From a virus, in IMG/VR virus record IMGVR_UViG_3300046517_000355, positions 7,672 through 71,671 of that record: DNA of 64,000 nt, one strand, 5' to 3'. Shown piece after piece: positions 2,787-37,158 of the stretch (its first letter is position 1; every line of letters starts with the position of its first letter). Both the position numbers and the translations under genes were made by a program. The notes beneath the pieces are model-generated. The model was not told the DNA's origin and did no database searches. It was given only the letters and a program-made list of their open reading frames with translations.

Positions 2787-2837
2787 TTGACATCATTTGC
2801 GGATCGTGTAAAATGCAGAGACGCACGCAAGTCGTGC
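2787..2837 (+). promoter_or_regulatory. Early-type promoter plus pentaloop hairpin (copy 1)
   Basis: TTGACA-tcatt-TGCGG, 16-bp spacer, TAAAAT; GCACG-CAAGT-CGTGC at 2823-2837. Confidence 0.8.
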
Positions 2838-2863
2838 CATGATCTGAAGAAAGGAGAAACACA

Positions 2864-3148
2864 ATGGGATCTTTAATTGGAGACGAAAAGCAGAAAGACT
2901 GCATTTGTGATCACGCTGTAGGAGCATGCACGAGGTTTTCGAAATGCGATATGATCGATTGCAAGTGTGCAAAACGCAACCGCGGAGAGAAGCACAGCGA
3001 CACCGCTCTGCGCTTCGCACTGAAGCAATGTCTGACGCTGGTCGCAGGCGTCGCGCTCATGACCGTCGCCGTGCTGATCTTCGTAGGATGCTTTCTGCTC
3101 AGCGAAAGCGAGGTCATCAAGATCAGAGAAGCGATCTTTGGAGGTTAA
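2864..3148 (+). CDS. Small Cys-rich membrane protein
   Basis: SD AAGGAG; CICDH...C...CKC then a hydrophobic helix. Confidence 0.7.
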   Translation: MGSLIGDEKQKDCICDHAVGACTRFSKCDMIDCKCAKRNRGEKHSDTALRFALKQCLTLVAGVALMTVAVLIFVGCFLLSESEVIKIREAIFGG

Positions 3149-3520
3149 ATGAAACAAATAGGAGAGAACACAGACTTCACCGTCGGCATTCTGCGCAAGC
3201 TATTTGCCAACAAGGTAGCAGTCGAGCGCATCGAGGAGGTGATCTTATTCGACACACAAGGAGATCCTCCGCACTATCGCGTCGCGAATTTTGACATCAT
3301 GCTTCCTGAAGCGGGACGTCCTCATTGGGAAGTGATCGCTTGGTACGGCGGCAATCAGACATTCGACAACCCAGAGGATCCTTCCGAGTGCGAGCTTGGA
3401 ACTTTTCGGACGTTTGAAGAGGCAGTCGCAAAGGTTTGGAGCACTATTGCCGCAGAGGAGCTTTCGAGCTTTTGGGAGAACATGATCGGCGATCTGATCG
3501 AGGAGCAACAAAATGTCTGA
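3149..3520 (+). CDS. Hypothetical protein
   Basis: SD GGAGG, abuts upstream stop, acidic. Confidence 0.7.
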   Translation: MKQIGENTDFTVGILRKLFANKVAVERIEEVILFDTQGDPPHYRVANFDIMLPEAGRPHWEVIAWYGGNQTFDNPEDPSECELGTFRTFEEAVAKVWSTIAAEELSSFWENMIGDLIEEQQNV

Positions 3521-3788
3521 CAGCATAGAAGCCGCGAGGGAGTTTTTAATGAGTCGAGCAGGATCGTTCCCTGAAGACCCACATCCGACTGTGATAGAAC
3601 TCGCCGCCTTCGCAGACCAGATATCCGAGCAGCGGGTAAAGGCTGAAAGGAAACGGCTGTACAAAGAGTTGGACAAACTAGGTAACCACTCGAATCATCG
3701 GGCAGATTTCGGATACAAAGTCGATTTATGGATGGAGACTGAATTTGCCGAGGAGATAGGAGGAACCGATGTATCAAAAGACGCATGA
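3513..3788 (+). CDS. Hypothetical protein
   Basis: SD GAGGAG, overlapping operon arrangement. Confidence 0.65.
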   Translation: MSDSIEAAREFLMSRAGSFPEDPHPTVIELAAFADQISEQRVKAERKRLYKELDKLGNHSNHRADFGYKVDLWMETEFAEEIGGTDVSKDA

Positions 3789-4188
3789 CTACATTCTCAC
3801 GTGGACGCCGAAAGGACAGCTTTGTGCGGCGATCTGCAAAGTGAAAATCTTTCACGAGAAGAAATACCTAGGAGTTGATCGATTCATCATCTTCGTCTCA
3901 GAGATGCCGAACAACCCAGGTATGAGCGTGACGAACGGCTTCGAACAGATCGCCATGGAGATCATCGAGCGCGACTTCTTAGAAATAGTGGCGCGCAACT
4001 TCGTCGGCACAAACTTTACTTGGGTTGAGCACTGGGCGAAGGATCCGAAGCTGAAGCTCGAAGAAACTTTCGACACTGTGACGCTGACATGGCGAGATCG
4101 TCGTCTGGCTCTGCCGCAGTGGAAGCGTGTAAGCTGGTACACACTGTCGCGTATATTAGAGATCGAAGGAGAATTCAAAGACACTTGA
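3769..4188 (+). CDS. Conserved-looking hypothetical protein (NPGMSVTN...WVEH motif)
   Basis: SD AGGAGG; motif recalled from uncharacterised phage/plasmid proteins. Confidence 0.65.
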   Translation: MYQKTHDYILTWTPKGQLCAAICKVKIFHEKKYLGVDRFIIFVSEMPNNPGMSVTNGFEQIAMEIIERDFLEIVARNFVGTNFTWVEHWAKDPKLKLEETFDTVTLTWRDRRLALPQWKRVSWYTLSRILEIEGEFKDT

Positions 4189-4240
4189 CACGATCTGCAA
4201 TCTGTGTATAATTCGAGCACGCAGTCACGAACTGCCACGA
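4185..4240 (+). promoter_or_regulatory. Early-type promoter plus pentaloop hairpin (copy 2)
   Basis: TTGACA-cgatc-TGCAA, 16-bp spacer, TATAAT; GCAGT-CACGA-ACTGC-CACGA at 4221-4240. Confidence 0.85.
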
Positions 4241-4264: not shown

Positions 4265-5602
4265 ATGAGTTTATCTGACGACGAATTTCGTGCCGCATTT
4301 GCCCGCGGAGCCAAGCGCGCTCGTGACGGTCGTGGTCCAGTTCCAGACGGAGCAAAGTTTCTCAGTGAATCCCTTCGCAATGGCGACAAGTTCGTCGAGC
4401 GCTTGGACAAGTCTAGTAAACGTGAGCTTGCAGATCACATGATCAACGAATGCGAGAAGCGTCCGTCACTGCTCGAAATGGCAGGAGCCAATGAATACAG
4501 ACTCGACCCGAACGACATGGGCTCTTTCCTACTCGGTCCGTCGATCAACTTGCTCAAGAGAAAGTCGCCTGAGGTATACGAGCTTTTCTTCAAGAAGATA
4601 TACAAACACGTTGATAAGTGGCACGACTGGCGGTGGCCGAGCTTCCTGCTCTCGTGCTATGCGGCGATGTTCATGGACGGCACCGCAGACCACACAGTCG
4701 ATGTGCGCGAGATGGCGATCTTTCTCGCTCAGTGGACGAAAGAGGACATGCCTATCTATTTCATCGAGCCTGATCTGCTCGAAGCGTGTCTTCAGACGAA
4801 CCCGCCGACAGACATCGACGTGTCTGATCTCAAGCTTCCGCACCCAGGCTTTATCATGATGTTGCCGAGGGGTAAGTTCAAAGAGGCGAACGAGGACATT
4901 CCCTACATCGCAGTCGCGCGATATGAGCCAGACTTCTTCAGACGTAAGCACTCGATCCATGGAACGACCATCGACGTTACCATCGAAGGAGACTTCGACA
5001 AACTTGATGAACCTGAGTTCACCGTCGCGACGACGCGAGAAGGCACCTTTCACACGACGACGATGCGCACCATCGCGAGCAAGATCCCTGAATTGCTGAA
5101 AGAAGATCACATCGACATCAAGTGGCGCACGACAGACACGGACGAGGTCATCGCTATCGCTAACCGCACGCGCATCCTGCACGTAGCGCTCAACTTGATA
5201 CTGGCTATGGAAGCCCGTCCAACGCTCATAGAGCGTGGAAGAAAGATCACTCAGCACAAGAGAGATCGTAAGCAGGAAATATGGCACCCGAACATCATCG
5301 GAAGCAAGTATCAGTTCAAGCATGTCACAGGCGGCGTCGAGAAAGGCAGTCACAGTTCGCCACGCTTTCACTGGCGCCGCGGACACTTCAGACGGCAAGG
5401 CATCGGTCCTCGGCTCAACAAATGCACCTGCGGTGATCTCTATGATCAGCACGTCAGACACGACGACGCGCCTGATGCATTCTGCAAAGTGACGGACTGC
5501 CGATGCACGAACTTCACACGAGCGGACAAGAAGTTCGACACATATCAAACGATCTGGATCGAGCCGATGATGGTCAACTTCGAGATCGAGAAAGCCACAT
5601 GA
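4265..5602 (+). CDS. Hypothetical protein with C-terminal SPRxHWRRGHxR...WIEP motif and inserted Cys/His Zn-type motif
   Basis: 445 aa, SD AAGGAG, own promoter. Confidence 0.8.
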   Translation: MSLSDDEFRAAFARGAKRARDGRGPVPDGAKFLSESLRNGDKFVERLDKSSKRELADHMINECEKRPSLLEMAGANEYRLDPNDMGSFLLGPSINLLKRKSPEVYELFFKKIYKHVDKWHDWRWPSFLLSCYAAMFMDGTADHTVDVREMAIFLAQWTKEDMPIYFIEPDLLEACLQTNPPTDIDVSDLKLPHPGFIMMLPRGKFKEANEDIPYIAVARYEPDFFRRKHSIHGTTIDVTIEGDFDKLDEPEFTVATTREGTFHTTTMRTIASKIPELLKEDHIDIKWRTTDTDEVIAIANRTRILHVALNLILAMEARPTLIERGRKITQHKRDRKQEIWHPNIIGSKYQFKHVTGGVEKGSHSSPRFHWRRGHFRRQGIGPRLNKCTCGDLYDQHVRHDDAPDAFCKVTDCRCTNFTRADKKFDTYQTIWIEPMMVNFEIEKAT

Positions 5603-7933: not shown

Positions 7934-9715
7934 TCATTCTCCTCCAAACCATCCGTTTTTAGTTGAACCGAGCAAGAGCAAGCTCTGATCATCATTTTGA
8001 TCGAGATCATTGAGATCAGCAAGAAAGGCGCCATAGCATGACATCGACTGCGCGACAGCCGCGTCGATTCGCTTCGAGTCAACCGTAGTGCCTTTGACGA
8101 TGCGCAATTTCTCGCCTTCGCTGTATTTCGCTTTACACGCCGCGAGGTGCTCGTAGAAGTCCTCTCTGCCTTTCGGGATCCAGATCAGCCCGTCTTTGTA
8201 GAGGTGATAAAGCATCGTATCTGCTCTCGTGCGCATCTCGCCTTGGTTGAATTCGATCACGTCGATGCCATAATCCATGAGGTTGAGCCTGATCTGATGA
8301 AGCTGGTACGGATCGAAATAGACAGGCGTGATGTACTTCTCCTGTTTTGCGTCGAAGTAGGAGCGCAAGAGGTTCGCATCATAAAGCTCTTTGACTTTCG
8401 TCTCGACAAGCTCATGAAGATCGGCGTCCTGTCCGTGCGGATCGTGTATCTCGATGTACGGCGTGCAATAAGACTCGCCTTGTTTATCAGAGCCTACGAG
8501 AGCGATGCTGTCGTGTCGCATCGCCGCGTCCACAGCAAGCGTGAAAGGACGTGCATCTTTCTCGTAGGCTTTGATCCAGTTCGACTCGACTTTCGCCGCA
8601 TCGATCCACGCAGGCTCAAGCATCTCGCTCGAAGACGCTTGCCAGCGGTTCTGCATGAGTCTGATCGCTTCTGTCCTAGGCAGGTTACGTGACTCGCGCT
8701 TGTAGGCTTCATCAGTCTGCCATGGAAGTCGTCGATCATGATCCCAGAAGATGAACATCTCCTCCTCAGGTATCTCGACACATGCAGGCCGCTGATCTGT
8801 GATGATGTCGTCAAGCTCTGCGACGTAATAAGCGGCGCTCGTGTTCGGCTCGCTTCCGTCTTGCAGTTCCTTTTCGTCAACACTTGTCCACGCCTTCAGG
8901 AACAGGCGGAGAAGGGTTTTCGACTCGTCAGTGTAGCCAGCGTAAGTCTCGATCCAGCGCATCGACACGCGACGTGTCTCGACAGGCATCAACTCAGCAA
9001 AGAGTCTTTCATCAGTCTCGCTCTTGAAAGCCCATATTTCTGTCCACAGCGTGAGGCAATACGAGTCACCTGCCTCGGTGCTCGGATTGTTCGGCAGTGC
9101 TTTGACTTGCGTGCCGTTCGGCAGGAATATCTCAGGCTTTGAATTGACTGCCGTCTTCACGTCGCCTCCGAGAGCTTTCAGCATAGGCTTCATTGATCGA
9201 TAGACACGATCTTGCGCCTGATCTTTCTTGTTGGCTATCGCGAGCACGACATTAGGAGGATCGACAAGCGCGGCGAAGTAAGCTCCGACACATGCGGCGA
9301 TCTGCGTCTTGCCGCACTTCTTCGGCTGTGACCAGATGATCGTCGTGTACTTCGAGAGACGCCCATTGTAGCCTCCGGGTGGAAAGATGTGGCGCAGTAT
9401 GCGCTTCTGAAATTCTTCGAGGACGATCTTCTTCGGCGGCTTTCGAGGATCGTCGAGCTTGAGCGTGACTTCGTTCACCGAGGTATAGTCGTAGCAGTTC
9501 TCCTCGATCCATTCGTCGATCGGTTGCAAGAGATCGAAGCGCACGTCGCCGTCAGGCACGATCTGCTCGACGTGAGACGTGTTGCGAGCGCGATCATGTG
9601 CATCGAGCTTCGCGCGAAGCTCTGAGGCTTCTTGATCGTAAAGACGAATAACCTCTCGCGTGGAGAGGTTCGTTGGGAAGAAGAAACGATTAACCTTGAG
9701 GTCAGGCAGTGTCAT
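7934..9715 (-). CDS. terL: Terminase large subunit
   Basis: Walker A QPKKCGKT; nuclease motifs AVDAAMRHD, YFDPYQ, RIDAAVA; start at the ATGA overlap. Confidence 0.9.
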   Translation of the reverse strand: MTLPDLKVNRFFFPTNLSTREVIRLYDQEASELRAKLDAHDRARNTSHVEQIVPDGDVRFDLLQPIDEWIEENCYDYTSVNEVTLKLDDPRKPPKKIVLEEFQKRILRHIFPPGGYNGRLSKYTTIIWSQPKKCGKTQIAACVGAYFAALVDPPNVVLAIANKKDQAQDRVYRSMKPMLKALGGDVKTAVNSKPEIFLPNGTQVKALPNNPSTEAGDSYCLTLWTEIWAFKSETDERLFAELMPVETRRVSMRWIETYAGYTDESKTLLRLFLKAWTSVDEKELQDGSEPNTSAAYYVAELDDIITDQRPACVEIPEEEMFIFWDHDRRLPWQTDEAYKRESRNLPRTEAIRLMQNRWQASSSEMLEPAWIDAAKVESNWIKAYEKDARPFTLAVDAAMRHDSIALVGSDKQGESYCTPYIEIHDPHGQDADLHELVETKVKELYDANLLRSYFDAKQEKYITPVYFDPYQLHQIRLNLMDYGIDVIEFNQGEMRTRADTMLYHLYKDGLIWIPKGREDFYEHLAACKAKYSEGEKLRIVKGTTVDSKRIDAAVAQSMSCYGAFLADLNDLDQNDDQSLLLLGSTKNGWFGGE

Positions 9716-11035: not shown

Positions 11036-11401
11036 CTACGGAGCGACTCGTGTCAACACACTTTTATTTTCAACGAAGTCGATCTCGAATCCGTCTCCGT
11101 TATCGAATGCAGTATTGAAGACAAACGCTGGCGGATCGAAGGTGTGAATGCGAGCTTTCGCGCTGATGACGTAATACTTGCAACACGGCACGAGCACAGA
11201 GTAGTAGCCGAAGCTCGAAGTCACGGCGAATGCGACTGGCAGTGCGAAGTCTGGATCATAGACAGTTATGATCGCACGAGAGATCGGCAGTCTGAGCCCT
11301 GTCGCTGTGAGTGTGTAGGCACGGCCTGAAACTACTGACTGAGCAGGCATGGTGATCGCGAGGATCGCGAGTAGTGAGATCAAGATGATCAGTTTCTTCA
11401 T
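11036..11401 (-). CDS. Secreted carboxypeptidase-regulatory-like (beta-sandwich) domain protein
   Basis: Signal peptide MKKLIILISLLAILAITMPA-Q; VSGR...TSSFGYY...IDFV pattern. Confidence 0.75.
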   Translation of the reverse strand: MKKLIILISLLAILAITMPAQSVVSGRAYTLTATGLRLPISRAIITVYDPDFALPVAFAVTSSFGYYSVLVPCCKYYVISAKARIHTFDPPAFVFNTAFDNGDGFEIDFVENKSVLTRVAP

Positions 11402-11537
11402 GTGTGGTTCCCTCCCTGGTTTGATCGCTCTGTGGGCGATTCGGCGAGAGCATAGCAAATTATTTTGCAAAAAGACACAAAAATGCGGAAAAAGTGTCGA
11501 AAAGGGCTGTTTTTCGATGTTTAGCCTAGGATAATGC

Positions 11538-11593
11538 TTGACACGTATTGCAAAGAGCGTAAAATAGAGCTTGTCAGCACGACTGACTAAGGA
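11538..11593 (+). promoter_or_regulatory. Early-type promoter plus pentaloop hairpin (copy 3)
   Basis: TTGACA-cgtat-TGCAA, 16-bp spacer, TAAAAT; GTCAG-CACGA-CTGAC-TAAGGA. Confidence 0.85.
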
Positions 11594-11601
11594 CGAAGAC
11601 A

Positions 11602-11838
11602 ATGGAAACAATCATCAAAACACACGCAAGATACAAGATAAACGAGATCAACTCGACATGCTTCACGCTTCATTACACGCTGATCAAGAATGGCAAGGCG
11701 TGGGGAACGTTCTACTACATTCGCAAGGGCGCCGACGCGATTGTCCGAAGTGAGTATGCAATTCATGAAGGGTGGTCGTCACGCGAGATCGTCGATGCGA
11801 AGATCGCAGAGAACGAAGCGAGACTCGCGAGCAAATAG
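11602..11838 (+). CDS. Hypothetical protein
   Basis: Monocistronic between promoter and terminator hairpin. Confidence 0.7.
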   Translation: METIIKTHARYKINEINSTCFTLHYTLIKNGKAWGTFYYIRKGADAIVRSEYAIHEGWSSREIVDAKIAENEARLASK

Positions 11839-11839
11839 C

Positions 11840-11866
11840 GAGAGGGCGAAAGCCTTCTCTTGTGTT
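11840..11866 (+). terminator. Putative terminator
   Basis: GAGAGGGC-GAAA-GCCTTCTC then TTGTGTT. Confidence 0.6.
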
Positions 11867-11921
11867 GACACGTTTTGCAAAGCGTGTATAATCATGACAG
11901 CACTCACGAAGTGCCAAGGAG
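11865..11921 (+). promoter_or_regulatory. Early-type promoter plus pentaloop hairpin (copy 4)
   Basis: TTGACA-cgttt-TGCAA, 16-bp spacer, TATAAT; GCACT-CACGA-AGTGC-CAAGGAG. Confidence 0.85.
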
Positions 11922-11928
11922 AAAAACA

Positions 11929-12402
11929 ATGACAACGAAAATAGAAGCAAGACGATCAGCAAACCGCGGCGACCTTTTCATCAAGCCTGGCAAAGACAAG
12001 CTTGTCCGCCAATACAATAGCGACGTGATCGACTACAACACAGGCTCATACTACTTCCCGACTGAGATCGAACTGGTCACGATCTTGAGGTCCGGCGATC
12101 TGACTCAGAAAGAACGAGACGAACTGAAAGTCATGTATGGCGACTTTGAACTGACGATGCACGAAGGCACGATGGGAGCACATCCTTCTGATCTCTCCTA
12201 TGCGACTGTCGATGATCTGATCAACGCCCTTCGAGCGTTCTCACCTGACGGCACGAAGCCTGTTGAGATCAGCCTCGGGCAGTACAACAAAAAGTATCCT
12301 GTCGCATACATGAAGATCGATTCCCTTCAGTCGAACGGGCAAGACATCCGCATCGTCTGCTCGCTTCCGAACGACATGAGAACATCGACACGCAAAAGCT
12401 AA
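11929..12402 (+). CDS. Hypothetical protein
   Basis: Start reassigned to the ATG after SD AAGGAG (MTTKIE). Confidence 0.75.
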   Translation: MTTKIEARRSANRGDLFIKPGKDKLVRQYNSDVIDYNTGSYYFPTEIELVTILRSGDLTQKERDELKVMYGDFELTMHEGTMGAHPSDLSYATVDDLINALRAFSPDGTKPVEISLGQYNKKYPVAYMKIDSLQSNGQDIRIVCSLPNDMRTSTRKS

Positions 12403-12429
12403 TCAGCAATGTCTCCCACGACATTTACA

Positions 12430-12451
12430 ATCGCCACGAGCGATCAAGGAG
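12430..12451 (+). promoter_or_regulatory. Intercistronic pentaloop hairpin abutting SD (copy 5)
   Basis: ATCGC-CACGA-GCGAT-CAAGGAG. Confidence 0.75.
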
Positions 12452-12457
12452 AAGAAA

Positions 12458-13297
12458 ATGAAAACGATCAAAGTCGAAAACAAAAAGTATAAATCGAACG
12501 AAGTCATGAGCACGATCACTTTTGCAGTCGCGAAGCGCGAGTCTGACAATGCGTCGAATGTGTTCATCAAGAGCATCGAATCAACCGGGCGTTATGCTGG
12601 CCTCCAGCGTATGTTCGAACAGCCTGACGTGCTCGTGAAGCGTGTCGGGCAGATCGAGCGGCTAGGCGACGGCACCTTCGAGGCGAAGCTCGCAAGTCGA
12701 TACAGCCCGAACGGGCCTCTGAGCTTCGTCAAAGAGACGCAGAAAGACGCTCTGATGGGGCTCGTGGCGTCGCTTGAATACTTCCAGAGTTATGCTGAGA
12801 AGCTTGTCGATCTCACGCTTCCTTATCTACAGTCGAAGCGCTTCGAGCACATGTGGACTGATCTTCGTCGCCAGTTTGATCGCGTCGGCGAACGGTACCA
12901 GAAGATGTTCGCCGAGATGACGACAGGGATGGATGCCGCGAATCCTGGAACAATCATTCATCAGCTTGAGTGGAGAGCAGACGAAATGCTTCATCTCGCT
13001 CACCTGCAAGGCTACGCACTGCGCATCATCAAGCAACTCGAACGGCTGACGGTCGCAGACGGCGAGACTGTGATCGTCAAGACGGCTGATGCACGACATG
13101 CGATGACGATCTTCAGAGACAAGCTTGTCGAGATTCGCGAGGAGCTTACTGAGTCTCTCCTGCGTCGCAAGTCGTGGGGACAGACATCGAGTGGCACTGG
13201 TCAGCGTATGAGCGCCTGTGCTGATGCGGATGCACAAGCTGACATGATCGATCTGCTCAAAGACGCGGTCCGATTGATCGATTCTGATCTCAAATAA
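12458..13297 (+). CDS. Hypothetical protein, helical C-terminus
   Basis: 279 aa, SD AAGGAG. Confidence 0.8.
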   Translation: MKTIKVENKKYKSNEVMSTITFAVAKRESDNASNVFIKSIESTGRYAGLQRMFEQPDVLVKRVGQIERLGDGTFEAKLASRYSPNGPLSFVKETQKDALMGLVASLEYFQSYAEKLVDLTLPYLQSKRFEHMWTDLRRQFDRVGERYQKMFAEMTTGMDAANPGTIIHQLEWRADEMLHLAHLQGYALRIIKQLERLTVADGETVIVKTADARHAMTIFRDKLVEIREELTESLLRRKSWGQTSSGTGQRMSACADADAQADMIDLLKDAVRLIDSDLK

Positions 13298-13301
13298 AGC
13301 G

Positions 13302-13697
13302 ATGCGATACACAATGACCAACCCGTGCAACCTTTGCCCTTTCAGAAACGACGACAAGCGTCTGACAGTGCATCCAGATCGTCTCCGCGAGTTCGCTCGC
13401 GGAGCTTTTGTTTGTCATCAGACTGCGGAGCTTTTCGAGAGTGACGACTATGAGGAGGAAAGCGGCTTTGTCGATGCAGGAGAATCGAGTCAACACTGTG
13501 CAGGCTCGTTGATCTTCCACGAGCATCTTGAGTGGCCGCATCAGATGATGCGAATCGCAGAGCGCCTAGGCATGTACGACAGGACGAAGCTCAACATGGA
13601 TGCACCTGTCTTCAAGTGCTGGGAGGAGGTCTACATAGCAGACGACATGGCAGATCAAGTCGAGTCTCAGGGGTTCATGAAGAAGATCACCGACTGA
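13302..13697 (+). CDS. Cys/His Zn-binding hypothetical protein
   Basis: PCNLCPFR...FVCH...HCAG motif. Confidence 0.75.
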   Translation: MRYTMTNPCNLCPFRNDDKRLTVHPDRLREFARGAFVCHQTAELFESDDYEEESGFVDAGESSQHCAGSLIFHEHLEWPHQMMRIAERLGMYDRTKLNMDAPVFKCWEEVYIADDMADQVESQGFMKKITD

Positions 13698-14070
13698 AGC
13701 TTGATCGAGAGCCTGACTTGCTGAGCGCCTCGCTGGAAAGCGGGGCGTTTGGCGCTTCTATCTCGACAAGAAAGCTTCGACCGTCGCCTCCGAGCGCGAG
13801 TGCGCAGTCGTCGCAGAAGTTCTCTCTCAGAAACGGCTTTTGGAAAGCGGTGCGCAGGTGCTCTGGAAGCTCTGAGATCGCTGTGTGTGTCGCGAGCGCA
13901 CTGCACTTGTCGCCGTCACGGAAAAGCCCTCCATCGCACTCCAGCTTCACGAGCGACGTGTTTATCCGCCCTGGCATCAGGCGAAACTCGATCACATTCT
14001 CTGGGATCGTGCTGGTCTCGATGTCTTTGCTCGCATTAAGCAGGTCCTTCAGTCGTTTCATCCACTTCAT
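13687..14070 (-). CDS. Hypothetical protein (Cys-containing)
   Basis: SD GAGGAG; CD...C...CDDC. Confidence 0.6.
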   Translation of the reverse strand: MKWMKRLKDLLNASKDIETSTIPENVIEFRLMPGRINTSLVKLECDGGLFRDGDKCSALATHTAISELPEHLRTAFQKPFLRENFCDDCALALGGDGRSFLVEIEAPNAPLSSEALSKSGSRSSFSR

Positions 14071-14680
14071 ATTCTCTCCTCATTTTGCGGTATATGTTGC
14101 TCGCAAGCTGATCGTTTCTCGCATTATCGACATATTTCGCGATGAAGTCATCGTCACCACTCTCGAAAGCCCTTCTCAGGGCGGCCGTCGCGTCGCAACC
14201 ACGCAAGCAACTGACAGCGATCTCCGCTTGCTTCTGATCGACGATCCTCATGATCGAGACGACTGCGAGCGCACTGTCTTTGATCAGGTCCTCGATGATC
14301 GTGTCGCCGTCGATCTTGATCTGGTTCTCAGCACACGCGAGACGAAAGGCACTGATCAGCTTGTCGCGCGTCTCGGCTTCTTCATCATTGAGGTCCTCTT
14401 TGTTGTTAAAGATCACCTGCGAGACGTGCGCGACGACATCGCACTCGATGGTTCCATTGATGTCGCTCAGATCCTTCGTCGTCATCTCTTTGACTCGGAT
14501 GCCCAATGTCGCCTGTGCGCCTGTGCTCAAGTCTTCGAGGTGCACAGTGAGCGGCTCCTGCGACACGAAGCTGGCTCTTATCAAGAGAAGCTGGTCGCGC
14601 CCGCTTGTCGTGAACATGATCGAGTCTTCGTCTCTCGTGCAGGTGCTCGCGAGATCGACATTTCCAGTGAACACTCTCAA
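14036..14680 (-). CDS. Hypothetical protein
   Basis: Probable TTG start overlapping upstream TGA, SD GGAGG. Confidence 0.65.
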   Translation of the reverse strand: MRVFTGNVDLASTCTRDEDSIMFTTSGRDQLLLIRASFVSQEPLTVHLEDLSTGAQATLGIRVKEMTTKDLSDINGTIECDVVAHVSQVIFNNKEDLNDEEAETRDKLISAFRLACAENQIKIDGDTIIEDLIKDSALAVVSIMRIVDQKQAEIAVSCLRGCDATAALRRAFESGDDDFIAKYVDNARNDQLASNIYRKMRREYEVDETTEGPA

Positions 14681-14955
14681 TATAGGAACCTCCCAATGAT
14701 AACGATGAAGCGTGTCGTCATGATGCCTCCGATCTGTGATACCGAATCGCTCCTGAGGTAAACAGCACAACGGGTTTGGTTGCCGTTTTCATAGAGGGCG
14801 CCAAACAACTCTTGTCCATGGAAGCTCGCCTTCGCCAGTGCTTCAGTGAGCGTCCTGTCCTTTACCTCGATGCCATAGCCGTGCGGCAAAAGCACGGCAT
14901 CCTTCTCTATGATCCCAACGTCTGGAATCTCGATGACAATCGTCGCCTCATTCAT
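14677..14955 (-). CDS. Hypothetical protein
   Basis: ATGA overlap, SD AGGAG. Confidence 0.65.
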   Translation of the reverse strand: MNEATIVIEIPDVGIIEKDAVLLPHGYGIEVKDRTLTEALAKASFHGQELFGALYENGNQTRCAVYLRSDSVSQIGGIMTTRFIVIIGRFLY

Positions 14956-15275
14956 AGTGCTCCTACAGGCAGAAAGCCTTTCATGATCAGAGTCTCCTTT
15001 GCGATCTGAAGCTCGCGAGCACAGACCTCGCAGAATGCAGAGCGCTCCTTGTCCATGATCTCCATCAGCCGCTTGACATTCTGAGTGTCGACCTCTGCCC
15101 ATGAGCGCTGAGCGCAGAAGCTTAAGAAGCCGTCAGTCTCAGTCAGTTCGAGCAAAGCGACGTGCCAGCGGTGGTGATCTTTCTTGAATTTGTAAAAGAG
15201 GATCTTCTTGCAGAAGAATTTTTCATTCTCTGGCGTGATCAGGTCGAAGTCCTCAAGGCGTTTTTCGTTTCCCAT
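14952..15275 (-). CDS. Hypothetical protein
   Basis: MGNEKRLEDF; CEVC near the C-terminus. Confidence 0.6.
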   Translation of the reverse strand: MGNEKRLEDFDLITPENEKFFCKKILFYKFKKDHHRWHVALLELTETDGFLSFCAQRSWAEVDTQNVKRLMEIMDKERSAFCEVCARELQIAKETLIMKGFLPVGAL

Positions 15276-15537
15276 ATACGAAATAATAAAACTTTTTGCC
15301 CGCATACTGCGCGAACAATGACGCGAGAGTCTCCTCGAAGGTCCACGATCTCTCTCGTGTATAGACGACAAGCTCCTGCAGGAGCTTCACCTTCGATGGA
15401 AATACCTTTGTGCTGAGAAAGATCGTGAGTGCTTCTTCGAAGTGCGTGTGGATGTGATCGACCTCGAATTCATAGACGGCGTGCTCTTTGATCGCCCAGG
15501 CAGGAACGTCGATCTGTGGTCGTGCATTGAGTTTCAT
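15253..15537 (-). CDS. Hypothetical protein
   Basis: MKLNARPQ; preceded by two hairpins. Confidence 0.6.
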   Translation of the reverse strand: MKLNARPQIDVPAWAIKEHAVYEFEVDHIHTHFEEALTIFLSTKVFPSKVKLLQELVVYTRERSWTFEETLASLFAQYAGKKFYYFVYGKRKTP

Positions 15538-15627
15538 GAGAATGCCGGCAACCTCTCCCACAAAGGCTGCCGGCTATTCGAGACAGACCGTTTCAAAAAC
15601 GTCTACCACGTCCGCCTGTCTCGAAAC

Positions 15628-16002
15628 TTATTCAACGTCGAGCTTATCGATCTCGCTCACGTTAGTCTTTTTTTTAGTGATCTTGATGCCCCACTTCTCA
15701 TTGAGGACGACCGTGTCGCCGTCGTCGAGATCGTATGTCGGAACATTCGTGCGGCGCATCTCCTCGATCAGATCGTCACGAGCGACGACATACTCATTCC
15801 GAAGCTGAAGCATGCCGTCGCGCTTCTGCTTGCAGAGATCGCCGAGCTTCTTCAGGCGCTTCGAGACGACCGGCTTCACGCCTGGTAGAAACGTATCTCC
15901 TTTCGAGTTCGCATCGACCTCAACCATTTCGTCGTCAGGATCAGGTATCAGGTTATCGTCGGCTATTTCTTCAGCTGGGGCCGACTTCTTCTTTCGTGGC
16001 AT
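15628..16002 (-). CDS. Hypothetical protein
   Basis: SD AAGGAGAACCAACAC-ATG (MPRKKK). Confidence 0.7.
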   Translation of the reverse strand: MPRKKKSAPAEEIADDNLIPDPDDEMVEVDANSKGDTFLPGVKPVVSKRLKKLGDLCKQKRDGMLQLRNEYVVARDDLIEEMRRTNVPTYDLDDGDTVVLNEKWGIKITKKKTNVSEIDKLDVE

Positions 16003-16021
16003 GTGTTGGTTCTCCTTTGTT

Positions 16022-16273
16022 TTAATTTTCGAGATGCAGGATCTCTGTGATCGTCGGTCGCGGTTCGCCATACTTGACCGTCTCGACGTGTTCTCTCGTA
16101 CAAATTGGTGGAGCAAGAAGTCGCTGTCGCTCATGATGCAGAGCAGTGACTTGCGACTGAAGTCGCGCGATCTTTTCGTCACGATCTGCGACTTGTGTGT
16201 CATAGAGCGACTTGATGACGAAATAACTGACGATGATCGACATCGTGCAGGCGATGATCACGAGCATGTTCAT
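16022..16273 (-). CDS. Small membrane protein with coiled coil
   Basis: N-terminal TM helix; ATGA overlap. Confidence 0.65.
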   Translation of the reverse strand: MNMLVIIACTMSIIVSYFVIKSLYDTQVADRDEKIARLQSQVTALHHERQRLLAPPICTREHVETVKYGEPRPTITEILHLEN

Positions 16274-16650
16274 CCTGTTATCGGTTCATTCTTTCTGCGC
16301 TTCGCTTCTTCGATGTGCGGATAATTCTCTTTGAAGTGCGCCTTCAGTTTTTCGAGACGGTAGAAGATCGCACCTTCTCTGATCTCGTAATGAACCTTCT
16401 CCTTGAGTTCGTTTTGCTCGCGCATCGCATAAAGCATCGTGCGTGATGCGCACCAGTCTTCCTTCGTCGCATCCTTCTCTTGAATGAATGCGTCTTTGTC
16501 CTTCACCTTCGAAGGCTTCGTCGCAAGCTCTGTGATGAAATTCTCGACGCGACGCACGAGTGTCGCACCTCCTCGCAGAGCATTCGAGCTTGCCCGATCG
16601 GCGATGTCTTTCTCGACGATGATCCTTAGATTTTTTGTCCCTGTGTTCAT
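16270..16650 (-). CDS. Putative transcriptional regulator (RHH-like N-terminus plus Xis/MerR-like HTH)
   Basis: KNLRIIVE strand followed by two helices; SRTMLYAMRE...HY...IFYRL; first gene of the divergent operon. Confidence 0.55.
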   Translation of the reverse strand: MNTGTKNLRIIVEKDIADRASSNALRGGATLVRRVENFITELATKPSKVKDKDAFIQEKDATKEDWCASRTMLYAMREQNELKEKVHYEIREGAIFYRLEKLKAHFKENYPHIEEAKRRKNEPITG

Positions 16651-16663
16651 AACACTGAGCACG

Positions 16664-16692
16664 ATTGTAAGAAGACGTTAACTGCAAGTCAA
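16664..16692 (-). promoter_or_regulatory. Leftward sigma70 promoter
   Basis: TTGACT-N17-TACAAT; very short leader, no SD. Confidence 0.75.
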
Positions 16693-16759
16693 GTAATTTT
16701 ACTAATATCTTCACAGCCTAGGATTAGACGAATTATGTTCCACGGCTCAAACATAGAAC

Positions 16760-16817
16760 TTGACATCATTTGCAATGTGTGTATAATCGAAGACAGCACT
16801 CACGAAGTGCCAAGGAG
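16760..16817 (+). promoter_or_regulatory. Early-type promoter plus pentaloop hairpin (copy 6)
   Basis: TTGACA-tcatt-TGCAA, 16-bp spacer, TATAAT; GCACT-CACGA-AGTGC-CAAGGAG, identical to the 11900 copy. Confidence 0.85.
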
Positions 16818-16824
16818 AATGAGA

Positions 16825-17094
16825 ATGCTACAAGTCAACTATTCAACATCGTTAGTAACTTTCAAGGACGGCGAGTTCGTCGCTGAAGCTTCGACGCTTG
16901 GGATCGCACCTGGGCGTCGCCCGTCGGGCATCACTCTCAAGAGCGACAAGACTGGTCGCTGTGCGACTTTTGCCTACATGACGACAGTCGTCAAGTTCGG
17001 CGAAGTCGTCGCGTGGCGCTACGTGCCGACACGTCTTGCATGGACTGACAATCGCAAACTACGAGGCACGAGCCTCGTGATCTTAAACGACTAA
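16825..17094 (+). CDS. Hypothetical protein
   Basis: ATG 7 nt after AAGGAG; FVAEASTL motif. Confidence 0.7.
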   Translation: MLQVNYSTSLVTFKDGEFVAEASTLGIAPGRRPSGITLKSDKTGRCATFAYMTTVVKFGEVVAWRYVPTRLAWTDNRKLRGTSLVILND

Positions 17095-17095
17095 C

Positions 17096-17117
17096 GCGAG
17101 CACGACTCGCCAAGGAG
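17096..17117 (+). promoter_or_regulatory. Intercistronic pentaloop hairpin abutting SD (copy 7)
   Basis: GCGAG-CACGA-CTCGC-CAAGGAG. Confidence 0.75.
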
Positions 17118-17123
17118 ATCGAA

Positions 17124-17528
17124 ATGAAACAAGGAATCCGAAAACCCATATTTGCTGACGGCGAGCGCGTCGTCAGATCAGTAGGCGAGAAGAAGATCGT
17201 CACGCTCAAAGGTACGCCTGAGTGGAACGGCACCACATTCATGTACGCCTGTGAAGAAGATGCGATGCGATGCGGAGAGGATTATCTTCGCATCACTCTC
17301 AAAGAGGACGCAGTGGCACAAGAGCTTGCTCCTCGTGCTCTTGAGCGAGAGAAATATGAGACGACGAAGGACTTCGCGAGCAGACTTTTGGCGAGCATGT
17401 TCCAAGAAGTCTTCGCACACACAGGACGCGAGATGCCTGCCGAGATGTTTGATCGTGTGAGCGACTTCACGACTCAGATGCTGGATGCGGTATATGACAC
17501 GTATCACGTCGAAGGGAGGTCATTGTAA
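17124..17528 (+). CDS. Hypothetical protein (SH3/KOW-like N-terminus possible)
   Basis: SD AAGGAG; IFADGERV pattern. Confidence 0.7.
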   Translation: MKQGIRKPIFADGERVVRSVGEKKIVTLKGTPEWNGTTFMYACEEDAMRCGEDYLRITLKEDAVAQELAPRALEREKYETTKDFASRLLASMFQEVFAHTGREMPAEMFDRVSDFTTQMLDAVYDTYHVEGRSL

Positions 17529-17830
17529 TGGCGACACGTCTGAATAAAACGATCAAGCGCGTCACTGAGAGCATCGTCTTCGAGCGAGGCAAGACTCGAC
17601 AGATCGTCGTCTCGATAGAGCCGACACGCGATGGCTCTTCCATTGGGCTGAAGCTTTTGGGCAATCGCGACACGTACCGCATCGGCACACAGTCTGTCCT
17701 CAACATGGCGATACGTCATCATCAAGACAAGATCGAGCGACGTACAAAAGCGATCATGAAGGCAGAAGGCATCAACCAGCGCTCAGCACGAGCACGAGCA
17801 CGCAAGGAGCTTGCGAAGGAGTTGAGATGA
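17528..17830 (+). CDS. Basic hypothetical protein with Arg-rich C-terminus
   Basis: TAATG coupling; NQRSARARARKELAKELR. Confidence 0.7.
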   Translation: MATRLNKTIKRVTESIVFERGKTRQIVVSIEPTRDGSSIGLKLLGNRDTYRIGTQSVLNMAIRHHQDKIERRTKAIMKAEGINQRSARARARKELAKELR

Positions 17831-21945: not shown

Positions 21946-21975
21946 TTGACAAGCTCGCAAAGGTGCGAGTATATT
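21946..21975 (+). promoter_or_regulatory. Promoter for the initiator operon with an inverted repeat in the spacer
   Basis: TTGACA-N18-TATATT; CTCGCA-aagg-TGCGAG. Confidence 0.6.
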
Positions 21976-21982
21976 TCCGATC

Positions 21983-22149
21983 TCGGTGATCGCTTTTTGG
22001 ATGGCGGTCACCGACATTCTCAAAATTTAGACCAGATAAGTGCCTTTAACTCGGCGTCTTAGTGTCCGCGTGTCTTCGCCATCTGGTCGGCTAAGCTCCT
22101 CGCGTATTCCAAAGATGCGAGGCGTCGAGTTAAGGGCATTTTCCTTTTT
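21983..22149 (+). ncRNA. Structured leader or antisense-type RNA
   Basis: 11-bp hairpin, then an 18-bp basal stem (3 G-U) enclosing two arms, then a U-tract; internal complementarities to upstream segments. Confidence 0.55.
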
Positions 22150-22981: not shown

Positions 22982-23009
22982 TTGACACGATCTGCAAAAA
23001 GCGTTAAAT
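22982..23009 (+). promoter_or_regulatory. Early-type promoter (no full hairpin; CACGA at 23016)
   Basis: TTGACA-cgatc-TGCAA then TTAAAT at 16-bp spacing. Confidence 0.7.
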
Positions 23010-30228: not shown

Positions 30229-30746
30229 TGGCATTCAGACTTGATCCAGTCAAAGACAAGGACCTGATCGATAAGCTCTCGAAGCGAACCGGTCAGGACC
30301 TTGGCAAGCTCATGCATCGCGAGCGACAGACTGCCGCGCAAAAGAAGCTCAAAGCGCTCGACGCTCCACCGCCGTTCGAGCACACAGATCGTGTGATGAA
30401 GTTCGTCTTCGCTTATCCGATCTCGACGAACCACCTTTATGTGTTCGGCAAAGATGGGAAGCGACATCTTACTGAAGCCGGCAAATCGTACAAGAAGGAT
30501 GTCGCGGCGCAGGCTCACATCCAAGGAGCTTTCAAGATGACAGGACTTGTCGAGTTGACTGCGCACGTCTATCGACCTCTCCGCCGAGGCGATCTTTCGA
30601 ACAGAGTGAAGCTTGTCGAAGACGGGCTCAAAGGCATCGCGTGGCACGACGACGAACAGGTCGCCATCCTTCACATGTATCGACACTTAGACAGAGAAAA
30701 CCCACGAATTGAGATAGAGATCAGACAAATTCACCAAAACACTTGA
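30228..30746 (+). CDS. rusA: RusA-family Holliday junction resolvase
   Basis: YPISTNHLY, DLSNRVKLVEDGL, DDEQV. Confidence 0.85.
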   Translation: MAFRLDPVKDKDLIDKLSKRTGQDLGKLMHRERQTAAQKKLKALDAPPPFEHTDRVMKFVFAYPISTNHLYVFGKDGKRHLTEAGKSYKKDVAAQAHIQGAFKMTGLVELTAHVYRPLRRGDLSNRVKLVEDGLKGIAWHDDEQVAILHMYRHLDRENPRIEIEIRQIHQNT

Positions 30747-30770
30747 CACGATCTGCAAAAAACGTAAACT
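30743..30770 (+). promoter_or_regulatory. Early-type promoter (possibly leaderless transcript)
   Basis: TTGACA-cgatc-TGCAA, 16-bp spacer, TAAACT; GTG start 7 nt downstream. Confidence 0.75.
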
Positions 30771-34469: not shown

Positions 34470-34473
34470 TTCC

Positions 34474-34836: not shown

Positions 34837-36575
34837 AAATTAAATACCTTCAAAAAGCGGAATCGATCCGAGACGTGCGCGATCAGATCATGCAGTCGCG
34901 CGTCCTCGGCATCGACACCGAGACGACTGATCTCGATCCTCTCAAAGGCGAGCTTCGTCTCCTACAAGTATCACCTGATCCAGAGACATCGATCATCTTC
35001 GATCTCAAGAAGATCGATCCTCGCGAGACTGAGTTGGACTTCTTGCGCGACACATTCGAGTCTCCAAACTTCGTGAAGATGTTCCATAATGCGAAGTTCG
35101 ACCTCAAGTGGCTCAAGAAGCATTTCGGCGTCGGCATGACTGAGTGCGTCTTCGACAGTTACCTAGGCTCTCAATTGATCAACCCTGACGAAATAATGAT
35201 CAACCACAATTTGAAAGATGTGGCGGCGCGTTATGCATTCACTGATCTCACGAAAGGCTTCGGCAAGTCTGATTGGTCAGGAGACATCAGCGACGATCAA
35301 CTCAGATATGCCGCATTCGACTCGACGACACTGCATCCGATCAGAGAGAAGATGAACCAGCACTTCGACGCAGGTGATCTCAGGCGCGTCGCGCTGATCG
35401 AGTTCAATGCTGTCGATCAAGTCGCGGAGCTTGAGCTTGCAGGCTTCTATCTCGATGAAGCGATGTGGATGTCACGAGCGAACCAAGACGAAGTGGTCAA
35501 GGCTCAGCTTGCGGCAAAGCTCCATGAAGCGTTCGAGAAGGTGAGCGATCAGCAAAACTTTTTCGGCGGCTCGCAATTTAACCTCGACTCGACAGACGAC
35601 ATCCGCGATGCTCTGATCAAGCTCGGCGTTCCGCTCGACGCGAACGCGAGCACGCAGGCTTTCCGCATCGATCACCTGAAAGAGAAGCATCCGATCGTCG
35701 CAGACGTGATCGCCTATCGAGAAGCGGCGCAGGCTGTGAAGACCTACGGTCGTGCATATCCTGACTTCATCAGTCCGAAGACAAGGCGCGTCCACGCAGA
35801 CTTTCGACAGATCGGTGCTCCTACTGGACGCTTCTCGTGCGCAGAGCCGAACCTTCAGCAAATTCCTCACGAGGATGAATATCGTCATTGCTTCAAGGCA
35901 CAGGGCGACGGACGCAGGCTTATCATCGACGACTACTCACAGATAGAGCTTCGCATCATGACTCAATTCAGCCGTGATCCTAAGCTGATGCATGCCTATC
36001 TGAATGATGCCGATCTTCATGCTCAGACAGCGAAGGAGGTAGGAGTTGATCGTGATCTCGGAAAGCGCCTCAACTTCGGCACAGCCTTCGGCATTGCCGC
36101 CAAGCGCTTCTCTCTCGTGTCTGGACTCAAAGAGAAAGAGAGCGAGAAGGTGCTCAAGAAGTTCTGGGAGGTATATTCTGTGCTCGACTCGTATCAAAAA
36201 GAGAATGAGCGCATCGCTCGCGAAGATCGTGAGATGCGCTCGTGGAGCGGACGCACGCTCCGCATCGACTTCAATCTGCAAGATCGCTCAGCGATCGGCG
36301 CCATCGAACGACTAGGCAGGAACCTGCCGATTCAAGGAACGTGCTCAGACATCCTGAAGCGCTTTCTCTACCTGTGGAATAGAAAGCGCCGCGAGTTCAA
36401 TAACGCAGACTTGGTCAACATCGTCCACGATGAAGTGATCACGGAGTGCGACGCTGATCAGGCTGAGGAAGTTATCAAAGCGCAAGAGCAGTGCATGATC
36501 GACGCAGGGAACGAAGTGCTGACCGTCATCCCTTGCAAGGTCGAAGGAAAGATCAGCACGAAATGGGAGAAATAA
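34833..36575 (+). CDS. polA: Family A DNA polymerase with 3'-5' exonuclease
   Basis: IDTET, HNAKFD, YAAFD; TGRFS..PNLQQIP, DYSQIELR, KRLNFG, VHDE. Confidence 0.95.
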   Translation: MKIKYLQKAESIRDVRDQIMQSRVLGIDTETTDLDPLKGELRLLQVSPDPETSIIFDLKKIDPRETELDFLRDTFESPNFVKMFHNAKFDLKWLKKHFGVGMTECVFDSYLGSQLINPDEIMINHNLKDVAARYAFTDLTKGFGKSDWSGDISDDQLRYAAFDSTTLHPIREKMNQHFDAGDLRRVALIEFNAVDQVAELELAGFYLDEAMWMSRANQDEVVKAQLAAKLHEAFEKVSDQQNFFGGSQFNLDSTDDIRDALIKLGVPLDANASTQAFRIDHLKEKHPIVADVIAYREAAQAVKTYGRAYPDFISPKTRRVHADFRQIGAPTGRFSCAEPNLQQIPHEDEYRHCFKAQGDGRRLIIDDYSQIELRIMTQFSRDPKLMHAYLNDADLHAQTAKEVGVDRDLGKRLNFGTAFGIAAKRFSLVSGLKEKESEKVLKKFWEVYSVLDSYQKENERIAREDREMRSWSGRTLRIDFNLQDRSAIGAIERLGRNLPIQGTCSDILKRFLYLWNRKRREFNNADLVNIVHDEVITECDADQAEEVIKAQEQCMIDAGNEVLTVIPCKVEGKISTKWEK

Positions 36576-36576
36576 A

Positions 36577-36879
36577 ATGTTTGTTCAAATGCGATGCAAG
36601 GAGTGCCACGTGAAGCTCACTGTCGAAGTGCCGCCACGACACAAGATGACGACGCTTGAATATTGGATGATGCAGATCGTGTCGCCGCGCATGTACCTGA
36701 AGCACCGCGAGCACTCGCCGTTTTGTAATGCTGTCCAATTCGATCTCGCGATACAGGTCGAGAAGGAGGCTCTCTCAGGAGAGTCAGGACTGATCGGAGA
36801 GGAGCCTACGAATCCAGACCCGTCGGTCGACATCTTCGAGAAGTTCGACAAGAAAAAGGAGAATGAAGATGAAGCCTGA
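36577..36879 (+). CDS. Zn-binding hypothetical protein
   Basis: CKEC...H..HSPFC. Confidence 0.65.
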   Translation: MFVQMRCKECHVKLTVEVPPRHKMTTLEYWMMQIVSPRMYLKHREHSPFCNAVQFDLAIQVEKEALSGESGLIGEEPTNPDPSVDIFEKFDKKKENEDEA

Positions 36880-37072
36880 TCCACTGAAGCCTGACTCACT
36901 CTTGCTGATGAAGCTCGGCTCTGCGCTCGTGCATGCCGAGGAGTTTCTATCAGACAATGGACATCCTGTGGACAAAGTCGCCTTTGACACGATCATGATG
37001 AAGGAGCCGACAGTCAGAGCATGGCTCGATCAGATGACGGAACTTGCCTTGGTGCCTGTAAAACGAAGTTAA
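36863..37072 (+). CDS. Hypothetical protein
   Basis: KLGSALVHAEE...PVKR; SD AAGGAG. Confidence 0.65.
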   Translation: MKMKPDPLKPDSLLLMKLGSALVHAEEFLSDNGHPVDKVAFDTIMMKEPTVRAWLDQMTELALVPVKRS

Positions 37073-37102
37073 AATATATTCCACCTCCAGCCTACTTTTC
37101 TC

Positions 37103-37158
37103 TTGACATGCTTTGCAACTCGTGTTAAATTTAGAGCAGTCAGCAAGTCTGACCACGA
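37103..37158 (+). promoter_or_regulatory. Early-type promoter plus pentaloop hairpin (copy 8)
   Basis: TTGACA-tgctt-TGCAA, TTAAAT/TAAATT; GTCAG-CAAGT-CTGAC-CACGA. Confidence 0.8.

Follow-up and report, generated by a model that had tools for sequence, protein, structure and literature searches.

Loop-conserved pentaloop hairpins in the mRNA leaders of an uncultivated soil phage: candidate operators within a portable promoter cassette

The N proteins from phage lambda and from phage P22 recognize the boxB RNA through its pentaloop (PMC9074901), which is GNRA-like (GNRNA), its positions 1 and 5 forming a sheared G-A pair (PMC9830547), and regulators of the CsrA type bind a GGA motif (PMC4894983, PMC13443453). 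RegA of phage T4 is a repressor of about 30 mRNAs, its sites being located on the AUG or shortly 5′ of it; for RegB a strong-site consensus, GGAGRAYARAA, has been described, and secondary structure protects from RegB cleavage (PMC3014915). In T4-type phages, strong sigma-70-like promoters with stem-loops, called PeSLs (promoter-early stem-loops), flank ORFans and mediate modular shuffling; their stem-loop may lie downstream of the −10 box, acts as a terminator and is rich in GGGG...CCCC (PMC2839356). Cluster K mycobacteriophages carry SAS, a conserved sequence of 13 bp located 3–8 bp before start codons, and ESAS, inverted repeats of 17 bp; upstream of about half of the SAS there is an inverted repeat, and involvement in translation was suspected, the function being not known as of 2011 (PMC3203893). 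Concerning mRNA decay, RppH of Bacillus subtilis needs at least two unpaired 5′ nucleotides (PMC3997798), and papers on the stabilization of E. coli mRNAs by 5′-terminal stem-loops are among the references of the same source. The subject here is a set of eight hairpins, each with a stem of 5 bp and a loop of five nucleotides, in a stretch of 64,000 nt ("the window"), which comprises bases 7672–71671 of the 71,671-bp IMG/VR virus record IMGVR_UViG_3300046517_000355. The element fails a defining feature of each of boxB, CsrA sites, RegA sites, PeSLs, SAS/ESAS, the hairpin promoters of phage N4 and the families of Rfam. Judged from the sequence, the eight copies probably constitute a lineage-specific family of cis-acting mRNA-leader modules; that they are bipartite leader operators for an RNA-binding factor, carried within a portable cassette of promoter, hairpin and Shine-Dalgarno sequence (SD), is the reading we favor, tentatively and at somewhat less than an even chance.

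A chance origin of the hairpin set is excluded. All eight hairpins listed in an earlier note on this DNA were found where it had placed them, letter for letter and on the + strand. An exhaustive scan for a CAnG[AT] loop between perfectly complementary 5-nt arms, N5-CAnG[AT]-revcomp(N5), returns nine matches on the + strand (the eight copies and one at 35001) and three on the − strand, as opposed to a mean of 0.83 on the + strand (standard deviation 0.86, maximum 3) when the full 71,671-bp genome was shuffled 300 times with its dinucleotides preserved. For the version with a CACGA loop the count is six, against a mean of 0.17 and a maximum of 2 in the shuffles, and CACGA is the commonest pentaloop on perfect 5-bp stems genome-wide (six; the next loop has four). 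One close relative was found in IMG/VR, a fragment of 20.9 kb (G001; loci L007, L009 and L179), whose aligned DNA is 89–96% identical and which holds eight hairpin copies with the same six stems. A covariance model of 27 positions, built from 14 copies (the eight of the window and six from G001) and run with filters off on both window strands, recovers the eight copies at 22.2–36.7 bits, the next match reaching 12.4; this gap indicates that the family is closed, without imperfect members. In the pair counts pairing is 100%, all five pairs have changed on both sides, and none of 500 shuffles reaches the covariation score; as the copies had been selected for perfect stems, these pairing and covariation statistics are partly circular. 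Rfam gave no match at E≤1 in the whole window on both strands. The match at 35001 does not belong to the family; it falls in the DNA polymerase ORF (open reading frame), where it forms part of a palindrome of 7 bp, and the model does not pick it up. The general excess of CACGA in the window (304 versus 225 expected) is an effect of codon usage unrelated to the hairpins: it is found on the strand that is sense for the rightward operons, and codon phase 2 accounts for 24 of the 39 occurrences within large ORFs. Because codon phase explains it, the excess is not counted as evidence.

Five of the copies have their SD immediately behind the stem. These are copy 3 (11573..11592; GTCAG-CACGA-CTGAC, then TAAGG; 31.6 bits), which heads a 78-aa ORF (11602–11838), copy 4 (11900..11919; GCACT-CACGA-AGTGC, then CAAGG; 36.6 bits), heading a 157-aa ORF (11929–12402), and copy 6 (16796..16815; again GCACT-CACGA-AGTGC, then CAAGG; 36.7 bits), heading an 89-aa ORF (16825–17094), together with two intercistronic copies, number 5 (12430..12449; ATCGC-CACGA-GCGAT, then CAAGG; 33.6 bits), in front of a 279-aa ORF (12458–13297), and number 7 (17096..17115; GCGAG-CACGA-CTCGC, then CAAGG; 35.4 bits), which begins 1 nt past the upstream stop codon and heads a 134-aa ORF (17124–17528). 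In the remaining three the leader is longer: copy 1 (2823..2842; GCACG-CAAGT-CGTGC, then CATGA; 22.2 bits) and copy 2 (4221..4240; GCAGT-CACGA-ACTGC, then CACGA; 27.2 bits) have the SD 15 nt past the stem and head ORFs of 94 aa (2864–3148) and 445 aa (4265–5602), respectively, and copy 8 (37139..37158; GTCAG-CAAGT-CTGAC, then CACGA; 26.3 bits) has it 19 nt past the stem and heads the DUF932 gene (37187–38257). All eight are on the + strand. Beside hairpin 7 lies a further stem-loop, at 17069–17086 in the 3′ end of ORF 16825–17094, which ends 10 nt before the hairpin; its 7-bp stem ACGAGGC/GCCTCGT and ACGA loop again put CACGA at a hairpin tip. Another CACGA is found at 12417–12421, 8 nt before hairpin 5.

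The anatomy of the copies is uniform in some parts and free in others. That six different stem sequences pair perfectly, as had been noticed before, is borne out by 40 Watson-Crick pairs out of 40; moreover, all 16 copies of the two genomes have exactly five such pairs, the flanking bases and loop positions 1 and 5 being unable to pair. The helices hold three or four GC pairs and are not followed by a T-run. The loop is CAnGW, that is, CACGA in six copies and CAAGU in two. The second motif that had been described behind the stem is there in 8/8 copies as a YAnGR pentamer, and in five of them it is the start of the SD itself (YAAGG of AAGGAG); in the three long-leader copies it reads CATGA, CACGA and CACGA, and since it is kept where the SD is 15–19 nt away, it is not merely SD. 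Mean pairwise identity among the eight copies is 0.83 in the loop and 0.72 in the pentamer 3′ of the stem, 0.47 in the 7 nt past that pentamer, 0.42 in each stem arm and 0.28 in the 7 nt 5′ of the stem. The elements are located 13–33 nt 5′ of the AUG. When the leaders are folded from their predicted start, pair probabilities are 0.93–1.0 in seven copies, except for the outermost pair at 12430 (0.74), and about 0.6 in the copy at 2823; the hairpins have predicted free energies of −3.6 to −5.7 kcal/mol, with the SDs left open for the most part. A free stem of invariant length, a fixed loop and a fixed pentamer in sense leaders are the pattern of a recognized RNA hairpin and not that of a mere structural helix.

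It is the loop, and not the stem, on which selection acts. A loop base is altered by one mutation and a stem pair only by two; the loops are conserved nevertheless, which favors a trans-acting factor. The stems and the 5′ flank, which gene conversion would have homogenized as well, are the least conserved parts. Two pentaloop surveys (PMC9074901, PMC9830547) mention neither CACGA nor CAAGU in their main text, and their supplements could list them; a special intrinsic stability of the loops is therefore not an obvious cause of their conservation.

The hairpins are part of a larger arrangement. As the earlier note had it, six copies begin 7–8 nt past the −10 box of a shared promoter class, and two (12430 and 17096) are intercistronic, placed between a stop codon and the next SD; the latter two lack a −10 box at the proper distance. 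A promoter-only pattern search, independent of the hairpin, found seven sites, all on the + strand, where none was expected, and an eighth is located at 30743. A perfect 5-bp/5-nt hairpin 7 or 8 nt past the −10 hexamer accompanies six of these eight class promoters; promoter-like sites on the minus strand are without hairpin. The class promoters with a hairpin, all on the + strand, are 2787..2814 (TTGACA, a 16-nt spacer with conserved TGCAA/GTG, TAAAAT), 4185..4212 and 16760..16787 (both with 12 of 12 hexamer positions) and 37103..37130, in which the hairpin follows 8 nt past the −10 box, as well as 11538..11565 and 11865..11892 (the latter again with 12/12 hexamer positions), in which it follows after 7 nt. 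The two others, 22982..23009 and its near-duplicate 30743..30770, are on the same strand; the former has an unpaired CACGA 6 nt past the −10 box. The order of the cassette is TTGACA, 16-nt spacer, TAwAAT, 7–8 nt, hairpin and AAGGAG SD, often with a terminator ahead. In most rightward operons, which comprise replication genes and ORFans, its near-consensus promoter of sigma-70 type drives the first gene. For the intercistronic copy at 12430, a degenerate −35-like sequence, TCGACACG, 45 nt upstream suggests a decayed cassette. From the promoter geometry we infer that the hairpin-led genes are early genes.

Two observations concern the promoters themselves. In all eight, the 16-nt spacer has a conserved (T)TGCAA, and GTG stands just before the −10 box; the conserved spacer could be an operator for a DNA-binding regulator. 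At 21946–21992 there is a promoter-like site of TTGACA, 18 nt and TATATT in which a stem-loop (CTCGCA...TGCGAG) makes up the spacer; behind the site comes a small terminator-like hairpin, and the arrangement is similar to a PeSL.

Under the favored reading, the loop and the 3′ pentamer would be the two halves of a site at which a trans-acting RNA-binding factor of phage or host docks, and the 5-bp helix would serve as a ruler that spaces the two motifs 10 nt apart. On the five SD-fused copies the factor would compete with the 30S subunit; the tail being the SD in these copies, competition with the ribosome is the simplest output. Such competition could set the translation, and thereby the stability, of these mRNAs as one group, in a mode that may be likened to the two-site logic of CsrA or to the shut-off of early messages by RegA of T4. 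By analogy, the element would work most like an operator of boxB or CsrA type that sits in a PeSL-like cassette. A further step, on which we are more hesitant still, is a new post-transcriptional regulon: a protein unrelated to N, CsrA, RegA, RegB, Csy4, Hfq or CSD might read the CAnGW loop, the 5-bp helix and the CAnGR tail. Such a regulon would switch translation, stability or termination-resistance of most promoter-proximal rightward genes as a block, and, as a mobile promoter cassette would carry the operator along, newly acquired ORFans would join the regulon on arrival.

As in CsrA/RsmA sites, a hairpin loop close to the 5′ end displays one motif and a similar one overlaps the SD, a layout that would suit a dimeric binder; besides, YAAGGAG directly follows the stem in 5/8 copies, and CAAGGAG resembles the CsrA core. 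The loops, however, are without GGA, the motif starts are only 10 nt apart, and the phage has no CsrA gene. That the hairpins match neither boxB nor CsrA sites had been claimed before and is confirmed: the loops CACGA and CAAGT start with C, which is not GNRA-like, and GGA occurs in 0/8 of them. With the RegA and RegB systems the proposed factor would share that the initiation regions of early genes are addressed phage-wide by one factor. As in RegB sites, the SDs consist of GGAG and then an A-rich tract, and the one of the DUF932 gene behind the copy at 37139, GGAGAATAAAA at 37173–37183, fits the RegB consensus. RegA sites, in contrast, are unstructured, AU-rich and located on the AUG, whereas the elements described here are structured and lie upstream of it; RegB needs no hairpin, and neither the RegA nor the RegB family is encoded in the phage. 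Like SAS and ESAS, the elements are dispersed, have one orientation, are situated just upstream of the starts of some of the non-structural genes and include the SD. In ESAS, the arms are conserved in sequence and the spacer is variable; here the arms are free (the 0.42 given above) and the loop is fixed. No conserved block of 13 bp exists in the phage elements, and there is no sequence similarity to SAS/ESAS.

If a factor does read the hairpin, an uncultivated soil phage would provide a new RNA-recognition pair, as compact as N/boxB, with an RNA of 15 nt in which only the loop is fixed. It would be a potential orthogonal tethering tool, as N/boxB is already (PMC11786793), and the cassette would combine transcriptional wiring (the shared promoter) with post-transcriptional wiring (the leader operator) in one portable unit that moves ORFans. 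The signal is clean and the constraint on loop over stem is striking, but it comes from only two near-identical uncultivated genomes.

Several results weigh against an operator that is read by such a factor, first of all those of the search for a binder. Of the proposal in the earlier note that the hairpin is the site of an RNA-binding protein, the loop-conserved signature of a recognized hairpin has held, and the binder was not found in the searches. Fifty ORFs in total were scanned with Pfam and PHROGs (10 were rescanned, and for 6 PHROGs only was used); no RNA-related match came up among these 50, which include the hairpin-led genes, their neighbors and the tested minus-strand ORFs. Searches of the phage in six frames for CsrA, RegA, N36, RegB, Csy4, Hfq and CSD were all empty; there were no six-frame matches to RegA (PF01818) and none at E≤1 to the lambda N family (PF11438, N36), a search that could miss an unrelated arginine-rich protein. 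The most basic small protein, with 100 aa and a pI of 11.5, is encoded at 17528–17830, within the 16760 operon, and its model has an arginine-rich C-terminal helix (pLDDT 74.6); this model has no PDB fold match at E≤0.001, and looking up two small basic proteins in the Atlas brought no lead. A scan for antisense partners, that is, hairpin loops with UCGUG or ACUUG, returned only a background-like list.

Other adverse points come from the hairpins themselves. No G-U pair occurs among the 30 distinct pairs, so that the pairs as such give nothing in favor of RNA over DNA. The three long-leader hairpins adjoin the promoter and have their SD 15–19 nt off, from which it follows that occlusion of the SD is not the general mode. 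Two class promoters, 22982 and 30743, are without hairpin, and the placement of the hairpin at the transcript 5′ end (predicted +1/+2) is inferred from the spacing to the promoter −10 box only. No RNA runs are listed that contain the phage (window positions 11400–17600). The family is known from this phage and G001 only, and as these genomes are so alike, loop conservation across them adds little. The regulon that had been proposed earlier fares similarly: a real leader family beside a shared promoter class is there, and it rests on two near-identical genomes. Finally, at the G001 site orthologous to 11900 the stem is GCGAG instead of GCACT, with an unchanged loop; GCGAG is already the stem at 17096, and the orthologous change may thus be an exchange between cassettes rather than a compensatory mutation.

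Other searches for the family in relatives and databases came out as follows. A TerL profile served to collect distant relatives, namely 44 metagenome loci, 22 IMG/VR loci and 2 genome loci, which are, except for G001, at most 40% identical in TerL. In 65 of these loci (629 kb; the 2 genome loci were left out) the covariance model found nothing better than E 0.11; an exact-stem scan of the distant-relative loci found no leader copy, and no analogous over-represented loop was seen in them. Nor do the relatives examined have comparable repeated consensus promoters: three scattered consensus-like sites occur, none with such a hairpin. A search for relatives via the DUF932 protein yielded none and one via the 279-aa protein yielded only G001; TerL relatives at 58–68% identity exist as protein records only. 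In IMG/VR, the pattern CACGA-N5-CAAGGAGAA gave the element, among the matches listed, only in G001; a wider pattern in the listed loci gave at least 120 matches, one of them with a 5-bp stem (it stands alone in an unrelated 44.7-kb record and was regarded as chance). The pattern of −10 box, CACGA and SD hit 8 records, with the stem only in G001, and that of the promoter class hit 72 sites, with the hairpin only in G001.

The alternative that survives best, and which we nonetheless regard as rather unlikely, needs no trans-acting factor: the hairpin would be a passive 5′ stabilizer, or an insulator of the ribosome-binding site, in PeSL-like mobile cassettes. All that would count is a helix at the 5′ end or shortly before the SD. 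This helix would block 5′-end-dependent decay (by RppH/RNase E or an exonuclease of RNase J type) and free the SD from upstream pairing; the cassette would spread by recombination, and the identity of the loops would reflect common descent or gene conversion. This explanation was opened by a property that the earlier note had missed, namely that the hairpin belongs to a portable cassette located at mosaic breakpoints. Non-homologous replacements between the phage and G001 begin or end at cassettes. Homology stops at 11593, immediately past hairpin 3 with its SD, and sets in again with the terminator at 11837; between 16745 and 16757, an insert of 406 bp, a promoter-hairpin-ORF unit, is present in G001; and the gene past hairpin 7 is replaced in G001 from 17175 (borders 17174/17527 against L009). 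Further replacement borders against L009 are at 13297/13680. ORFans seem to be swapped as cassette-bounded modules, and the coincidence of the breakpoints at 11593, 16745–16757 and 17175 with cassettes is what the passive explanation would lead one to expect, as is the reuse of an existing stem in the orthologous stem change. PeSLs (PMC2839356, PMC4122927), in which promoter-coupled stem-loops shuffle ORFan modules (PMC2839356), provide a precedent; like them, the cassettes repeat a strong sigma-70-like promoter with a stem-loop (6/8 promoters), stand upstream of ORFans and have three replacement or insertion borders against G001. The stem-loops of PeSLs, however, are terminators with G/C runs (GGGG...CCCC) and a variable position relative to the promoter, whereas the phage hairpin is a weak 5-bp helix with a fixed leader position, a conserved loop and no T-run, and separate terminators precede some of the promoters.

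The position of the hairpin also fits a passive role: whatever the distance of the SD, all six promoter-linked hairpins lie 7–8 nt past the −10 box, and the predicted 5′ ends have 0–2 unpaired nucleotides, consistent with a 5′-terminal stabilizer. In this the elements resemble stabilizers of the ompA type, with a helix 0–2 nt from the predicted 5′ end and then a strong ribosome-binding site. Such stabilizers need no set loop or stem length, however, and the phage family is found twice away from a promoter. If the helix were passive, stems should vary in length or strength and loops should drift, yet the number of pairs is the same in 16/16 copies and loop identity is far above that of the stems, despite the fewer mutations that a loop change requires. 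Gene conversion would have homogenized the stems and the 5′ flank too, the CAYGA conserved past the stem in the long-leader copies is left unexplained, and the predicted free energies are weak for a dedicated stabilizer. Should the hairpin nevertheless be a passive 5′ helix only, it would represent an ordinary leader design with an unexplained loop constraint.

A second alternative, which we hold to be unlikely, is a site of the boxB/nut kind, where an N-like phage protein and Nus factors would be recruited and RNA polymerase would read through terminators. The elements share the geometry of lambdoid boxB, a pentaloop on a stem of 5 bp in the nascent phage transcript; the location just past an (early) promoter or between cistrons corresponds to that of lambda nutL and nutR, and recognition would likewise be via the loop rather than the stem. 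There is also a terminator that would have to be passed: the strong terminator-like hairpin at 38283..38300 on the + strand (GGGAGCC-TTCG-GGCTCCC, 7 pairs, 6 of them GC, then TTTTCTTT) lies directly 3′ of the DUF932 gene, inside the 37103 operon, and past it there are four + strand genes (38336–39509) with no recognizable promoter. Only this one internal terminator that would require read-through was seen, though. The other two end units or precede a promoter: the hairpin with T-run at 11840..11859 (+) closes the one-gene unit of promoter 11538, and the strong one at 13383..13404 (+; 9 pairs, 7 of them GC, and a T-run) is at the end of the 11865 unit. As a candidate for an N-like protein, the basic 100-aa protein of the 16760 operon is a lead only, and the N36 family is absent in six frames. 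The loop is CAnGW, and its end positions, C at 1 and A or U at 5, are unable to make the sheared G-A pair. In nut sites a boxA element adjoins the hairpin, and a lambda genome has two nut sites. The promoter-linked copies leave no room for a boxA on their 5′ side, where 0–2 transcribed nt are predicted at most, and no conserved boxA-like sequence is contained in the 27-column alignment; the phage has eight copies, five of them fused to the SD, and the fixed distance of 2 nt to AAGGAG in 5/8 copies, both intercistronic ones included, points to the ribosome instead.

Least probable is an element of the DNA level, that is, an extruded or single-stranded hairpin that would act as a virion RNA polymerase promoter of N4 type, as a site of recombination or nicking or as a priming signal, for although a free stem sequence with kept pairing would also suit a structure-specific DNA enzyme, all pairs are Watson-Crick without G-U, the mosaic breakpoints are at cassettes and the early promoters of N4 are DNA hairpins with variable stems, a DNA role does not predict that every copy lies in sense orientation with a −10 box or a stop codon before it and an SD behind it, the loops of N4 hairpins have 3 nt and not 5 as here, the conserved single-stranded 3′ pentamer fits an RNA tail better than duplex DNA, and the scanned proteins, those of the 1734-aa and 1894-aa ORFs included, carry no signal of an RNA polymerase.

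The genome from which the window is taken is rated complete in IMG/VR; it has direct terminal repeats of 127 bp. The G+C content of the window is 52.9%. Public runs that contain the phage are DNA metagenomes of soil and rhizosphere, and in four DNA runs the phage contigs are identical low-depth fragments without variants at the hairpins. No close cultured relative was found: a megablast of 7 kb had no match, the best tblastn match is 30% identical for the major capsid protein and below 28% for the DNA polymerase, and blastn of one cassette returned a single 21-nt match, taken as chance. A TerL relative in a contig of a Pyrinomonadaceae metagenome-assembled genome was considered as an indication of the host; with 34% identity it is too distant for naming one. 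Genes are oriented rightward at 2.8–6 kb, 11.5–13.4 kb and 16.8–39.5 kb, where they form a module of replication and recombination with many ORFans; it comprises a DnaB-like helicase, a PolA-type polymerase, a PolB-type exonuclease, RusA and Gp157, and also AAA_24, a ResIII/DEAD helicase, DNA methylases and DUF932. The leftward genes are those of the portal, terminase, capsid and large virion proteins. Among the ORFs that were scanned there was no RNA polymerase, and distant polymerases could be missed.

Two giant ORFs on the − strand, 44828–50512 (1894 aa) and 51725–56929 (1734 aa), have no Pfam match. Against PDB sequences they gave one weak match only (E 0.0023, an antibody light chain). 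The 1894-aa ORF has only weak PHROG matches, to virion/tail-spike proteins and in its C-terminal part, and for the 1734-aa ORF PHROGs gave none. Two soil runs hold a contig, aligned at the 80% threshold, that connects position 8194 with 9297 across 40 other letters; it is probably the diverged terminase of another phage, which aligns only at its conserved ends.

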